This document shows positions 35,306 to 39,162 of a stretch of DNA of 61,879 nt, piece by piece (position 1 is the first letter of the stretch; every line of letters starts with the position of its first letter). The notes beneath the pieces are model-generated. The model was not told the origin of the DNA. It was given only the letters and a program-made list of their open reading frames with translations, and searched no databases. The DNA is taken from IMG/VR virus record IMGVR_UViG_3300020044_003173, positions 1 through 61,879 of that record. One strand, written 5' to 3'. The position numbers and the translations under genes are program-made. Source of the DNA: a virus (lineage: Duplodnaviria > Caudoviricetes).

Positions 35306-36217
35306 ATGGCTATTTCACGCGCACAACTCCTCAAGGAGCTTCTGCCCGGCCTGAACGCCTTGTTCGGTCTGGAGTACGCTCGCTACGGAGAAGAACACAA
35401 GGAAATCTTCGAAACGGAGACTTCTGAGCGTTCGTTCGAAGAAGAGACCAAGCTGTCGGGCTTCTCGGCTGCTCCGGTCAAGAACGAAGGTAGTGCTATT
35501 GCCTACGATAATGGGCAAGAAGTCTTTACCGCTCGTTACAACCACGAGACCATTGCTCTGGGTTTCGCCCTGACTGAAGAGGCCATCGAGGACAACCTCT
35601 ATGACTCCCTGTCTACGCGCTACACCAAGGCCCTGGCTCGTGCCATGTCCTACACCAAGCAGACCAAGGCTTCTGCGGTTCTGAACAACGGCTTTAGCTC
35701 CAGCTTCCCTGGTGGCGATGGTCAACCTCTGTTCAGCGCCTCGCATCCCCTGGTTACGGGCGGCACTAACTCGAATACGCCCTCTACCGCTGCCGATCTT
35801 AACGAGACTTCGCTTGAAGCCGCCGTTATCCAGATCGCTGCTTGGACGGATGAACGCGGCCTGCTGATCGCGGCGAAGCCGCGTAAGCTGGTTATTCCGC
35901 CCTCGCTGATGTTCGTTGCTACCCGCCTGCTCGAAACTGAGCTTCGTGTTGGTACGGCTGATAACGACATCAACGCGATCAAGAGCAACGGGTCGATCCC
36001 CGGTGGCTACACGGTCAACCATTTCTTGACCGACGTGGACGCCTGGTTCTTGTGCACCGATGTGCCTAATGGTCTTAAGCACTTCGTCCGCACTCCGCTT
36101 GCTAACTCGATGGACGGCGACTTCGATACTGGCAACGTCAGGTATAAGAGCCGTGAGCGTTACTCGTTCGGCTTCTCTGATCCTCTGGGTATGTGGGGCT
36201 CTCCTGGCACCACCTAA
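35306..36217 (+). CDS. Major capsid protein
   Basis: MAISRAQLLKELLPGLNALFGLEY...RERYSFGFSDP; followed by a terminator. Confidence 0.88.
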   Translation: MAISRAQLLKELLPGLNALFGLEYARYGEEHKEIFETETSERSFEEETKLSGFSAAPVKNEGSAIAYDNGQEVFTARYNHETIALGFALTEEAIEDNLYDSLSTRYTKALARAMSYTKQTKASAVLNNGFSSSFPGGDGQPLFSASHPLVTGGTNSNTPSTAADLNETSLEAAVIQIAAWTDERGLLIAAKPRKLVIPPSLMFVATRLLETELRVGTADNDINAIKSNGSIPGGYTVNHFLTDVDAWFLCTDVPNGLKHFVRTPLANSMDGDFDTGNVRYKSRERYSFGFSDPLGMWGSPGTT

Positions 36218-36257: not shown

Positions 36258-36284
36258 GAAAGGGGGCTTCGGCCCCCTTTCTTC
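36258..36284 (+). terminator. Intrinsic terminator after MCP
   Basis: GAAAGGGGGC-TTCG-GCCCCCTTTC followed by TT. Confidence 0.8.
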
Positions 36285-36301
36285 TACTTAATATTCCATA
36301 C

Positions 36302-36361: not shown

Positions 36362-37777
36362 ATGGGTCGTCCGGCGCTTACGACAGAGGAATGGGTCGCT
36401 CAGGCGACTAAAACGCACAAAGGGCACTACGGGTACGCCCCTTCTGTGTACACAGGGTATGCACAACCGATAGAAATAGACTGCCCCCTGCACGGGGTTT
36501 TTACCCAGGGGGAGCATAACCATCGGAACGGAGCAGGCTGCCCTAAGTGCGGGGCCGCGTCTCGGCAAGCGAAGAGGTCCCACTCCTTCGCGTCGTTCCT
36601 AGCGGCGGTGGAGCCGGTACACGGCGGGGCATACACGTACCCGAAGCAGGAAGTGCACAACAGCCGCACGAAGCTTCGTATATTGTGCCCGGAGCACGGA
36701 GAGTTTTCTCAGACAGTTTATTCACACCTTCAGGGTGCGCGGTGCCCCAAATGTGCGTACGCTGCTAACGGGATGAAGTCTCAGTTGGGCATCTCGGAGT
36801 TTATGGATCGTGCTAAAGCCGTTCACGGGGGGCTGTACACCTACGTGTCAGGACTGCGCGGGATGCATAAAAATGTCTCCATCTCGTGCGCGCAACACGG
36901 GGTTTTCCAGCAAACCCCCACCAACCACCTAAAAGGCGCAGGCTGCCCCCGGTGCGCTAACCATATCTCCAAAGGCGAGGCGGAGGTTAAGCAGTTTATA
37001 GAATCTCTAGGGGTCCCGCTTCTCTCGTCGTCTCGTGGGCTTATCCCCCCGTACGAGCTTGATATGTACGACCCCGTTTCCAAGACGGCGGTGGAGTATA
37101 ATGGGCTATGGTTTCACCGGGAGGCGCTCGTAGGGGATAAGCACCGGAAGAAGTACGAAGCCTGTGCAGCGGTTGGGATCACTCTCGTGCAGATTTTCGA
37201 GGATGAGTGGGCTTCTATGCGCCCTCAGGTGGAGCACCGCCTTCGTGCGCTCTTTGGGAAGTGCCCTATAGTGGGGGCTAGGAAGTGTACCTTAGCTAAG
37301 GTCTCCCAGGCGGGGGCTTCTGCGTTCCTTAAGGCGCATCATACCCAGGGGTGCGGTACTGCAACGAAGCGGGCTTATGGGTTGTACCTTGGAGACCAGC
37401 TTGTAGCCCTTGCTACCTTTGGTACCGCCCGATTTGGGGAGGGGTGGGAGCTTCTGAGGTACTGCTCAATTGGTCGGGTTGTCGGGGGTATTTCCCGGCT
37501 GGTTAAGGCGTTTCGTAAGGACTACCCTTCAGGGGTTCTTGTTTCTTACGCAGACTTACGTTGGGGTAGCGGGGACGCCTACGGGCGCGCGGGGTTCACC
37601 CTTAGTTATATTACCCCACCGGACTATTGGTGGGCGGACTGCACGAAGGTTCAGCGGGTTTCACGGTACAAGCTTCAACCCCACAAGACGGGGGAGCCTG
37701 AGAAAGTCTACGCGGAAAAGCATGGGTTCCATAAAATACTCGGGGTCGGCCACAAGCGGTGGGTATCGGAGCCTTAG
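36362..37777 (+). CDS. Free-standing Hef-like homing endonuclease (3 zinc-ribbon repeats + Vsr/DUF559-like nuclease + GNAT/Mom-like C-terminus)
   Basis: Three CxxHGxF...H..G.xCPxC repeats; SKGEAE, ELDMY, AVEYNGLWFH, IFEDEW; WELLRY, SYAD. Confidence 0.75.
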   Translation: MGRPALTTEEWVAQATKTHKGHYGYAPSVYTGYAQPIEIDCPLHGVFTQGEHNHRNGAGCPKCGAASRQAKRSHSFASFLAAVEPVHGGAYTYPKQEVHNSRTKLRILCPEHGEFSQTVYSHLQGARCPKCAYAANGMKSQLGISEFMDRAKAVHGGLYTYVSGLRGMHKNVSISCAQHGVFQQTPTNHLKGAGCPRCANHISKGEAEVKQFIESLGVPLLSSSRGLIPPYELDMYDPVSKTAVEYNGLWFHREALVGDKHRKKYEACAAVGITLVQIFEDEWASMRPQVEHRLRALFGKCPIVGARKCTLAKVSQAGASAFLKAHHTQGCGTATKRAYGLYLGDQLVALATFGTARFGEGWELLRYCSIGRVVGGISRLVKAFRKDYPSGVLVSYADLRWGSGDAYGRAGFTLSYITPPDYWWADCTKVQRVSRYKLQPHKTGEPEKVYAEKHGFHKILGVGHKRWVSEP

Positions 37778-37818
37778 ACCCCTTTCTTTTTGCCTAGAGC
37801 TAGGATATCCTACGCGAA

Positions 37819-37884
37819 CTAGGCTTTTGCTCGTACCCACTGCCCTAGCAGACGTAGTAGAGATGGTACGGGCGGTGCTACTAC
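37819..37884 (+). ncRNA. Candidate structured RNA (double pseudoknot) in the leader of 37898
   Basis: Four interleaved complementary pairs within 66 nt (see findings). Confidence 0.45.
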
Positions 37885-37897
37885 ACGGGGACTTCTA

Positions 37898-38422
37898 ATG
37901 GCTCAAGTTACTTTCACGGGTCCGATCCGGTCGCTTAACGGCCTTTACACTCGCGGCCCTGGTTCGATCATCACCAACACGGCGTCTACCCTGACCATCA
38001 CGCCTCAGGCGCATGGCGGGCGGATCATCTACAACAACGTCGCCACGACCACGATTACCCTTCCGGCGGTTGACGTTACGGCGGGTGCGACTGGCGATAA
38101 TCCCAATAACCTTGGTGTCGTCTACACCTTCTATATCGCGGCTACGGCCACTGCGGTGAAGATTCGTACTACTAGCTCCGCTCCGGGCGACCTGTTTGTA
38201 GGGTCTCTTGTCGTCGGCAAGGATGGGGTTCTTACTGCTGGCGGTACGGCTACCTTCATCCCCAACGGCTCGTCCAATGACGTGATCAGCATGGCGGGTA
38301 CGACCACGGGCGGTATTGCTGGTTCGTATCTTTCTGTTGTCGCCGTGGCGGCCAACACGTACCTTGTCCAAGGGGTGCTTATTGGGTCGGGCACTCTGGC
38401 TACTCCCTTCGCCGACTCCTAA
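37898..38422 (+). CDS. Putative virion structural protein
   Basis: MAQVTFTGPIRS, TITLPA, ATPFADS; Thr/Gly-rich. Confidence 0.65.
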   Translation: MAQVTFTGPIRSLNGLYTRGPGSIITNTASTLTITPQAHGGRIIYNNVATTTITLPAVDVTAGATGDNPNNLGVVYTFYIAATATAVKIRTTSSAPGDLFVGSLVVGKDGVLTAGGTATFIPNGSSNDVISMAGTTTGGIAGSYLSVVAVAANTYLVQGVLIGSGTLATPFADS

Positions 38423-38433
38423 AGCGGGGCGTT

Positions 38434-39162
38434 ATGGAACGCGGGTATGAACTGGCAGGGCGGTCTCTTTTCGTCGCCCTGCCAGCGTATGACTTCAAGG
38501 TTTCTCTGAAACTGGCTATCTCCCTGGCTCGTGTGGCGCAGCTTGCTCCGCAGCATGGGATTAGCATCCAAATTGGCAGCGTCTGTGGGTGCTCGGTTGT
38601 GTCCCGTGCCCGCAACCTGCTGGTTAAGGATTTTCTAGAATCCTCCTGTACGGACCTACTGTTCGTGGACTCGGATATTAATTTCGAGCCTGAGGATGTT
38701 TTCCGCCTTATGGCGTGGGCGACTGACCCTCGTAAGGGGGTTGTGGCCGGGGTTCCCCGCACTCGTAGCGAGAACACGGTCTATATTACGGACCTAGACT
38801 ACGACGAAGACAACCAACTGACGATGAACGGTATGGGCCTCGTGCGTGCAAGGCGCGTGGCGACTGCCTTCATGTTGGTCCGCAGAGAGGTCTTTGGCAC
38901 CCTGACGAACGCACACCCTGAGTGGACTTATCAGGACAAGCGGTCTGAGCGGGCTATCTCCGCCGTGTTCGACTTCAAGCTCACCGAAGAAGGGTACATG
39001 GGCGAGGACTTCCTCTTCTGTGACCGTGCCCGTGAGCATGGGTTCGAAGTCTGGATCGATCCTACGATTAAACTCGGGCACATGGGCATCACCGAGTTTG
39101 CCGGTAACTTCGGGGAAGATATTCTCTACCCGATGCTCGCTCCAGCACAAAGGGTAGCTTGA
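38434..39162 (+). CDS. GT-A fold glycosyltransferase-like protein (copy 2)
   Basis: VALPAYD, VSRARN, FVDSD, ATAFMLVRR, GEDFLFC, LGHMG. Confidence 0.75.
   Translation: MERGYELAGRSLFVALPAYDFKVSLKLAISLARVAQLAPQHGISIQIGSVCGCSVVSRARNLLVKDFLESSCTDLLFVDSDINFEPEDVFRLMAWATDPRKGVVAGVPRTRSENTVYITDLDYDEDNQLTMNGMGLVRARRVATAFMLVRREVFGTLTNAHPEWTYQDKRSERAISAVFDFKLTEEGYMGEDFLFCDRAREHGFEVWIDPTIKLGHMGITEFAGNFGEDILYPMLAPAQRVA

Follow-up and report, generated by a model that had tools for sequence, protein, structure and literature searches.

The 61,879-bp window analysed here is a complete virus record with terminal repeats (IMG/VR record IMGVR_UViG_3300020044_003173; Duplodnaviria, Caudoviricetes), and the element under study is a compact RNA fold encoded on its + strand at positions 37819–37886, within the leader of a gene for a capsid-surface protein. 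The major capsid protein gene (Mu gpT-like; 35306–36217, +) was identified by matches to PHROG family phrog_371 (major head protein, E 7.4e-23) and to Pfam PF10124 (Mu-like_gpT, E 5.3e-10). It is followed by a terminator-like hairpin (36262–36285, +; GGGGGC-TTCG-GCCCCC, then a T-rich tail), and a similar hairpin is found at the matching place after the capsid gene of relatives. Between this terminator and the RNA element lies a free-standing HNH/homing endonuclease gene (36362–37777, +; phrog_559 HNH endonuclease, E 5.1e-86; phrog_3339 homing endonuclease, E 8.9e-70), and the spacer of 120 nucleotides (nt) that separates it from the next gene (37898–38422, +) contains the element. That gene encodes a predicted ‘cement’ or spike-like protein of 174 amino acids (aa), assigned from a positional counterpart annotated ‘cement protein’ in Phage DSL-LC04 and from a structural match of its model. 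Phage DSL-LC04 has no endonuclease gene at this place, the order being capsid gene, terminator, homologous 85-nt element and ‘cement protein’ gene.

The fold of the element was read directly from the sequence. The four complementarities described in the initial annotation of this DNA were all found where it had placed them, in the order A-B-C-A'-C'-D-B'-D', with D' ending 2 nt before a GGGGA motif and 13 nt before the ATG at 37898. Helix A is formed by CTAGG (37819–37823) and CCTAG (37844–37848), helix B by GCTCGTACC (37829–37837) and GGTACGGGC (37865–37873) with one G-U pair, helix C by CTG (37840–37842) and CAG (37849–37851), and helix D, as earlier drawn, by GTAGTAG (37854–37860) and CTACTAC (37878–37884). 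Written as RNA, the + strand begins with the CUAGG strand of helix A, followed by the 5' arm of helix B (GCUCGUACC). Residues 37839–37853 then comprise a junction A, hairpin C with the loop C-CCUAG, whose A' portion (37844–37848) pairs with the 5' strand of helix A to form pseudoknot 1, and a junction AC. Residues 37854–37863 comprise a variable nucleotide (G37854), the 5' strand of helix D (UAGUAG, 37855–37860) and a junction AGA (37861–37863), and are followed by the 3' arm of helix B (GGUACGGGC), which is defined by sequence and covariation. The six unpaired junction nucleotides (A; AC; AGA) and the C-G pair closing hairpin C are invariant or nearly so, the A, C...G and AC being invariant in 146 aligned sequences. 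The nucleotides before ACUG and after AGA usually lengthen helix B, as a G-C pair in 127 of the 146, where the window has a C.U mismatch.

Helix D required one revision. Six of its pairs stand, all of them changing on both sides among relatives, while the seventh, G37854-C37884, was unpaired in 33 of 101 alignment rows. C37884 can alternatively close a small covarying hairpin E (37875–37886, +), in which GTG (37875–37877) pairs with CAC (37884–37886) around a 6-nt loop, CUACUA (37878–37883), that is itself the 3' strand of helix D (pseudoknot 2). The middle pair of hairpin E is U-A in 87 rows, C-G in 8, U-G in 2 and A-U in 1. Because the 3' strand of helix D forms the loop of hairpin E, helix D is a loop-to-junction contact, just as helix A is a tail-to-loop contact. 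The Shine-Dalgarno (SD)-like GGGGA (37887–37891, +) lies directly 3' of hairpin E, at the spacing seen in the other elements of class 1, the window's class. Overall, helix B, hairpin C and helix D meet in a three-way junction that is locked by two pseudoknots, the whole fold being about 70 nt long. In the window, GCCTAG (37792–37797) can also pair with CTAGGC (37819–37824), taking in the 5' strand of helix A. This competitor of pseudoknot A is used by the nested minimum-free-energy fold; it lies in the 3' flank of the endonuclease gene and was observed in the window alone.

Taken by itself, the sequence of the window gives modest evidence that the architecture goes beyond chance. A scripted search for the architecture on both strands of the 61.9-kb window returned exactly one site. 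With relaxed helix lengths the architecture was present in 15 of 40 dinucleotide shuffles of the window, and with the observed helix lengths an equal architecture was present in 3 of 89. The element is single-copy in the genome and each of three sub-motifs occurs once; a reading of the element as a repeated promoter was ruled out because of this uniqueness.

Relatives of the element were collected in a set of 279 sequences (278 loci and the window). A regular expression (regex) written for the junction and helix B found the element in 232 of the 279, in 172 unique forms, with the order A-B-C-A'-C'-D-B'-D' kept. A 19-nt core word occurs exactly in at least 120 IMG/VR contigs, and a blastn search of GenBank phages with the 86-nt element matched only Phage DSL-LC04. 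Some loci were gathered through the downstream protein of the pelagiphages HTVC023P and HTVC027P, independently of the RNA, and these carry the matching architecture with different helix sequences. Two successive covariance models, R1 and R2, were built on helices A and D only, so that helices B and C lay outside the model. R2 found the element in all 100 chosen sources together with one weak extra match (101 rows), and recovered 27 of the 47 sequences missed by the regex, plus one (L264) that the regex had already found. It gave no match in loci of the Rfam motif Mu-gpT-DE, in Pag-Yong1, a Rhizobium phage or an Alcaligenes phage, or in one off-context pattern match. The spacings within the element are tight: 15–23 nt, mostly 15–17, from the 3' end of strand A to the core, and 13–17 nt, mostly 15, from the end of the core to D'.

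Members number in the hundreds, on phage contigs of both freshwater and marine origin. Some form of the element is carried by four cultured phages, namely HTVC023P and HTVC027P (Pelagibacter), CRP-901 (Roseobacter) and DSL-LC04 (host recorded as ‘Gammaproteobacteria’). Full copies scoring 68.6–80.6 bits with R2 were also seen on contigs (L279–L285) binned into metagenome-assembled genomes of six unrelated lineages (Chitinophagales, Ignavibacteria, Microbacteriaceae, Chloroflexota, Dehalococcoidia and Alphaproteobacteria). These are most likely phage contigs caught by binning, and therefore give no reliable host. An exact match to the 19-nt word in Alloiococcus otitis (L286) was rejected as not being an element.

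The initial annotation had named a lack of covariation or conservation among homologs, together with probing that shows no such helices, as what would refute the fold. Compensatory changes were found in all four helices and support it. Strands A and D' lie at variable distances from the core and were therefore tested first without an alignment; MAFFT alone misaligns both strands, the linker lengths being variable. Among the 172 unique elements, which carry 9 variants of A' and 9 of D, the exact Watson-Crick 5-mer complement of the element's own variant was present for A in 172 of 172 and for D in 171 of 172. The complement of another variant was present in the expected flank in 70 of 1376 cases for A, mostly a trivial overlap of ACTAG with CTAGG, and in 7 of 1376 for D. 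Two prospective scans were then made with junction-only patterns from which the common A' or D letters had been excluded. Among the 203 unique matches listed, 95 had both exact complements, 25 only that of A, 22 only that of D and 61 neither, the last being likely chance pattern matches. Those with both complements contributed at least 39 distinct new A'/D combinations (at least 16 A' loops and at least 25 D strands, duplicates not yet removed).

The aligned sequences gave the same picture. In a MAFFT alignment of 146 sequences that was not fitted to the structure, all 10 pairs of helix B changed on both sides with 91% of cells paired, as did two of the three pairs of helix C, and the covariation score of 0.632 (shuffled mean 0.205) was reached by none of 500 shuffles. 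In the R2 alignment the pairs that changed on both sides were 5/5 for helix A (99.0% of cells paired), 9/9 for B, 2/3 for C and 6/6 for D, although this alignment was fitted to helices A and D, which is a caveat on the counts of those two. Overall 95.3% of its cells were paired, as against 21–43% when the partners were slid by 1–3 columns, and none of 500 shuffles reached its score. Many of the sequences are related, so that cell counts overstate the independent changes; distinct variants are the fairer measure, and these comprise 9 + 16 A' loops and 9 + 25 D strands, in partly overlapping sets. On this comparison of sequences chance is excluded as the explanation of the helices, and the structural claim of four covarying, interlocking helices is confirmed. 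What began as a guess from a single sequence is now a defined RNA family, marked by two pseudoknots, six invariant nucleotides at the junction and covariation in each of its four helices.

The same alignments bear on whether the conserved sequence is an RNA at all, rather than a DNA-level signal such as a promoter, a protein-binding site or a homing-endonuclease target, or a set of chance helices. Long invariant stretches such as the 19-nt word, and the homing endonuclease genes that repeatedly adjoin the element, would suit a signal in the DNA, and helices A and D, being free of G.U pairs, are alone silent on the strand. The compensatory changes in all helices preserve pairing and not sequence, the element is single-copy in the genome, and helices B and C contain 87 G.U/U.G cells against 5 A.C/C.A, an excess which fits an RNA of the + strand and neither the opposite strand nor a DNA cruciform. 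We consider an explanation at the DNA level, or by chance, to be extremely improbable. The pseudoknot helices A and D contained no G.U in 1111 cells, where helix B contained 61; this strict Watson-Crick pairing may reflect tertiary constraints.

The position of the element relative to the flanking genes was compared across the family. D' was located in 171 unique elements, and in every one of them its 5-mer, which is the full strand minus one nt, ends 5–19 nt before the ATG. A downstream open reading frame (ORF) is present in 231 of 232 sequences, with a length of 62–246 aa and nearly always with a start resembling MAxTTFSGP. A capsid homolog lies upstream in 165 of the 172 loci with room for one, at a distance of 44–1073 nt, and at about 1.6 kb in the window. 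Because the distance to the ATG is fixed and that to the capsid gene varies, the element moves with the downstream gene and is a 5' leader rather than a 3' element belonging to the capsid gene. The proposal of the initial annotation, that a virion-protein gene carries a cis element in its leader, is supported by the fixed distance to the downstream ATG. Its term ‘post-MCP’ (after the major capsid protein gene) does not hold strictly, as the window has the homing endonuclease gene between the two and the element follows the downstream gene. Compensatory changes, location on the sense strand and a fixed place before a start codon, the general marks of a structured cis-regulatory leader, are all present.

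These positions can be set against a further possibility, that of an independent trans-acting or structural RNA such as an assembly or packaging RNA. Rfam types the related motif RF03012 (Mu-gpT-DE) as ‘Gene; sRNA’, a small RNA, and a terminator often precedes the element while a promoter-like site often abuts it, both of which would suit a separate transcript. No terminator follows the element, which runs into the SD and an ATG at 5–19 nt, and in several classes the helices include the SD or AUG of the downstream gene. A trans-acting role was accordingly rated as highly improbable.

The 3' partner of strand D lies in the translation initiation region throughout the family. In the window's class (79 unique 3' regions) D' ends 3–8 nt and hairpin E 0–4 nt before the SD, which is itself unpaired, with 0 SD nucleotides in D' and 0–2 in E. 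The gap between D' and the SD is 0–1 nt in the HTVC023P class, and elements of the HTVC027P class show a 3-nt overlap of D' with the SD. Most further classes have a hairpin E that joins an anti-SD arm (CCUU, CUU or CUC) to a 3' arm formed by the SD itself, with D' as the loop. Of 95 further elements, 76 fit this arrangement, hairpin E being 3 bp or longer and pairing two or more SD nucleotides. In Mu-gpT-DE and in intermediate forms the partner of strand D is on the AUG.

The sequence immediately upstream of helix A was examined for promoter-like sites. A -10-like hexamer in the window, TATCCT (37806–37811, +), ends 7 nt before helix A; its -35 match is weak and the best site of the window scores 6/12. 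Of 158 unique upstream regions, 66 have a TANNNT hexamer whose end lies 6–8 nt before helix A, the distance being exactly 7 nt in 51 of them, and a combined -10/-35 score of at least 8/12 was obtained in 69, of which 41 were at exactly 7 nt. A control anchor placed 300 nt upstream gave 13 of 129, spread out. The remaining 92 of the 158, including 56 of the 92 of the window's class, have no TANNNT hexamer at 6–8 nt, and many of these have only a terminator upstream.

If the transcript starts at or 1 nt before helix A, the element could be a constitutive, cap-like stabiliser or insulator of the 5' end that acts with no effector. The 5' terminus would be tucked into a coaxial A/C stack, shielding the mRNA from 5'-end-dependent decay and the ribosome-binding site (RBS) from the upstream context, in a topology loosely like that of the exoribonuclease-resistant RNAs (xrRNAs). 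The hexamer peak at 7 nt, which has no equivalent at the control anchor and is shared by the TATCCT of the window, would place the first nucleotides of the transcript inside pseudoknot A; the unpaired SD of the window's class and a product needed in large amounts point the same way. Such a role needs neither the invariant junction nor the second pseudoknot and leaves unexplained why most other classes incorporate the SD or AUG into the fold; the hexamer is missing at that spacing in the 92 upstream regions noted above, and no Rfam xrRNA model matches. We regard a purely stabilising role as rather unlikely.

When the window was compared with the 4227 models of Rfam 15, which include riboswitches, ribozymes, xrRNAs and leaders, no match at the gathering score was obtained anywhere in it. 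At E values up to 10 nothing relevant was found in 37600–38100, with two chance-level matches elsewhere in the region (E 0.37 and 6.4). The RF03012 model likewise gave no match in 37600–38100 at E up to 10, nor, at E up to 1, in a further 12 loci of the family; its gathering threshold is 49 bits and true members score 49–72 bits. The initial annotation had been unable to assign the element to a known family, and as far as matches to Rfam models by an Infernal-type search are concerned this still holds; it needs qualifying in that the junction core and the genomic slot are common to the element and RF03012. More distant loci collected through the protein carry a simpler element in the matching slot, which Rfam recognises as Mu-gpT-DE at 49–70 bits, and the cultured Roseobacter phage CRP-901 carries Mu-gpT-DE at 72.3 bits (L528 2999–3051).

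The two elements share several features. Both occupy the slot between a Mu-gpT-like capsid gene and a gene of the MAxTTFSGP type, and the window's element, like RF03012, lies downstream of a Mu-like gpT major head gene (PF10124), with the endonuclease gene intervening. Both have a junction core in which an outer stem leads, through a single A, into a hairpin with an invariant closing C-G pair; AC-N, a strand of 6 nt and A(N)GA come next, before the outer stem closes. The Mu-gpT-DE consensus differs in consisting of two nested stems with no pseudoknot: the hairpin is of 5 bp and its loop is free, and the outer stem, of 4 bp, takes in part of the SD. In the window's form the outer stem has 9 bp, the hairpin has 3 bp and a loop engaged in pseudoknot A, and strand D pairs upstream of the SD instead of at the AUG. 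The element lacks the defining fold of RF03012, in which a bulged A and a 5-bp hairpin lie within a 4-bp outer stem (3' arm in CAGGAG) and the 3' internal loop (ACAcUAGCCAcGA) has 13 nt. As the junction letters are common to both but the stems differ and two extra pseudoknots are present, the window's element is a relative and not a member of RF03012, and from the sequences it is read as a larger, doubly pseudoknotted relative of the orphan motif. Intermediate forms (L265, L266, L269 and L271) combine the A pseudoknot of the window's family with the ..GCCAAGA.. strand of Mu-gpT-DE.

A scan for Mu-gpT-DE with the loop strand left free gave 109 unique sequences (from loci including L530–L609). 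In these the ..AGCCA strand pairs with U-G-G-C-U of the start region. Three of the pairs are constant; one is G-C in 100 of the 109 and a compensatory C-G in 8, whose second codon is GGN instead of GCN; another two are only partly kept (82/109 and 90/109). The known motif therefore appears to carry an equivalent of helix D aimed at the start codon, a pseudoknot missing from the Rfam consensus. Rfam files Mu-gpT-DE as an sRNA that lies downstream of the capsid gene; the motif now looks like a reduced member of a family of leaders that belong to the following gene.

The Mu-gpT-DE motif is attributed to Weinberg et al. 2017 (PMC5737381), the main text of which makes no mention of gpT or capsid. 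In PMC10690425, 10,006 candidate structured RNAs in viruses are reported, including 8,495 unnamed IMG/VR candidates and six clusters under RF03012, and the leader pseudoknot of T4 gene 32 is stated to have no Rfam model. The core word of the element was not found in the passages and supplements of that article that were searched, and the element may be among its unnamed candidates. Literature searches for Mu-gpT-DE, for phage capsid-linked pseudoknot RNAs and for HTVC023P gave no description of the fold among the entries listed.

Among described systems the T4 gene 32 leader is similar in that a phage mRNA carries, near its 5' end, a pseudoknot that precedes the ribosome-binding site for an abundant protein. 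This leader is an autogenous translational operator with a single H-type pseudoknot, from which cooperative protein binding spreads to the RBS. Compared by description, it differs from the element in having one H-type pseudoknot, as against two on a three-way junction that directly touches the RBS. In the preQ1-II, SAM-II/SAM-V and NAD+-II riboswitches a pseudoknot strand lies at or in the SD. These small aptamers resemble the element in that placement and in their invariant junction nucleotides and covarying helices; they differ in that no Rfam model of theirs matches, that the gene of the element encodes a virion protein and not a metabolic or transport protein, and that the gene context suggests no ligand. 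The xrRNAs of flaviviruses are three-way junctions with two pseudoknots, one made with the extreme 5' strand and one with sequence 3' of the closing helix. The element likewise has a three-way junction and two pseudoknots, but the partners are swapped, the 5' strand pairing with a hairpin loop and a junction strand with the 3' tail, and no Rfam xrRNA matches.

Compact pseudoknotted folds with invariant junctions are also typical of small ribozymes, and the element might on this ground be a self-cleaving ribozyme or processing signal that separates the decoration message from read-through capsid transcripts. It lies between two late genes and is doubly pseudoknotted with invariant junction nucleotides, and the many copies that follow a terminator without an obvious promoter could gain a defined 5' end from cleavage. 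None of the ribozyme families in Rfam gives a match, including at E up to 10, the helix order is unlike the HDV-like, twister, pistol, hatchet and hammerhead layouts as compared by description, and cleavage would not explain the coupling of D' and E to the SD or AUG. Self-cleavage is thus a very unlikely function.

The protein encoded downstream was characterised through its sequence and a predicted structure. The 174-aa protein has no match in Pfam or PHROG, and searches with the window protein did not detect the DSL-LC04 ‘cement protein’ counterpart. An AlphaFold 2 (AF2) model built from a 32-sequence alignment, with a mean predicted local distance difference test score of 80.3, consists of a disordered but conserved N-terminal arm and a β domain. 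Comparison of the β domain with the capsid spike of Pseudomonas phage Pa223 by VIA-align gave a Z score of 10.1 and a root-mean-square deviation of 2.5 Å over 98 residues, and other phage surface domains gave Z scores of 10.4 and 9.2. A Foldseek search of the PDB with the protein returned only a weak top match (E 1.3e-3). The structural match of the model agrees with a role in capsid decoration, short of proof. The decoration proteins of the family are 16–78% identical to that of the window. The first ~10 residues (MAxTTFSGP) are the best conserved part of the protein family and are of low confidence in the model; this arm is probably a capsid anchor.

Since D' adjoins or overlaps the SD (in Mu-gpT-DE, the AUG), the element is best read as a cis-acting translational control element, an operator in the leader of the decoration gene, and we favour this reading with moderate confidence on the comparative evidence. 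Structure, strand, family, the tie to the downstream gene and the contact with the initiation region are shown by the comparison; control of translation, its direction and an effector of any kind are inferred. The 5' tail A pairs with the loop of hairpin C, and junction strand D with the loop of hairpin E against the SD. Docking of D' and hairpin E onto the junction would bring the ribosome-binding region up against a compact tertiary fold, or into it, and could so set or switch initiation on the decoration gene. The invariant junction would most likely be the recognition site of an effector that stabilises or releases the docked state, with a protein, for example unassembled decoration or capsid protein, or a small molecule as candidates. 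A junction so elaborate and invariant suggests effector recognition over simple tuning.

Several points weigh against this reading, besides the two cautions on the covariation counts given above. The minimum-free-energy z-scores of the element were −1.29 (133 nt) and +0.53 (86 nt) and are not exceptional. With the SD unpaired in the window's class, occlusion would have to be steric, or the element could instead favour initiation. As each capsid requires hundreds of copies of the protein, a strongly repressive fold would be an odd design. Decoration proteins diverge to the extent given above and yet the junction is invariant, which speaks against the body of the decoration protein as effector.

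A wider proposal, offered tentatively and held to be possible but doubtful, is that the element and Mu-gpT-DE together form a new class of effector-sensing RNA, a riboswitch or protein-responsive aptamer gating the RBS of the decoration gene across a very large group of aquatic phages, or that the 5'-tail pseudoknot is the bacterial-virus counterpart of an xrRNA. Small folds of such complexity with invariant junctions have often proved to be riboswitches or ribozymes, and the element is therefore a concrete candidate for bench work. An operator at this site would point to post-transcriptional control of capsid decoration in phage assembly, a step for which we know of no described regulation.

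In relatives the boundary of capsid gene and leader is a hot spot for insertions. Eleven ORFs from longer capsid-leader gaps (loci L020, L061, L070, L005, L032, L152, L135, L130, L045, L060 and L027) were scanned with Pfam, giving GIY-YIG with NUMOD3 in three, NUMOD3 alone in one, endonuclease VII in one and 2OG-Fe(II) oxygenase in three; the other three, each of about 200 aa, had no Pfam match. In the window a 10-nt direct repeat, CCCCTTTCTT, brackets the endonuclease gene at 36274–36283 and 37779–37788, and corresponds to the 3' half and tail of the terminator recurring after that gene. As a speculation, the invariant DNA coding for the RNA core would be a good homing target for the endonuclease. 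On the other side of the element, the gene that follows the decoration gene (38434–39162) matches phrog_1574 (E 4.3e-33), with weak sub-threshold matches to glycosyltransferase families 2 and 21. A transferase gene adjoining that of a capsid-surface protein may hint at glycosylation of the capsid.

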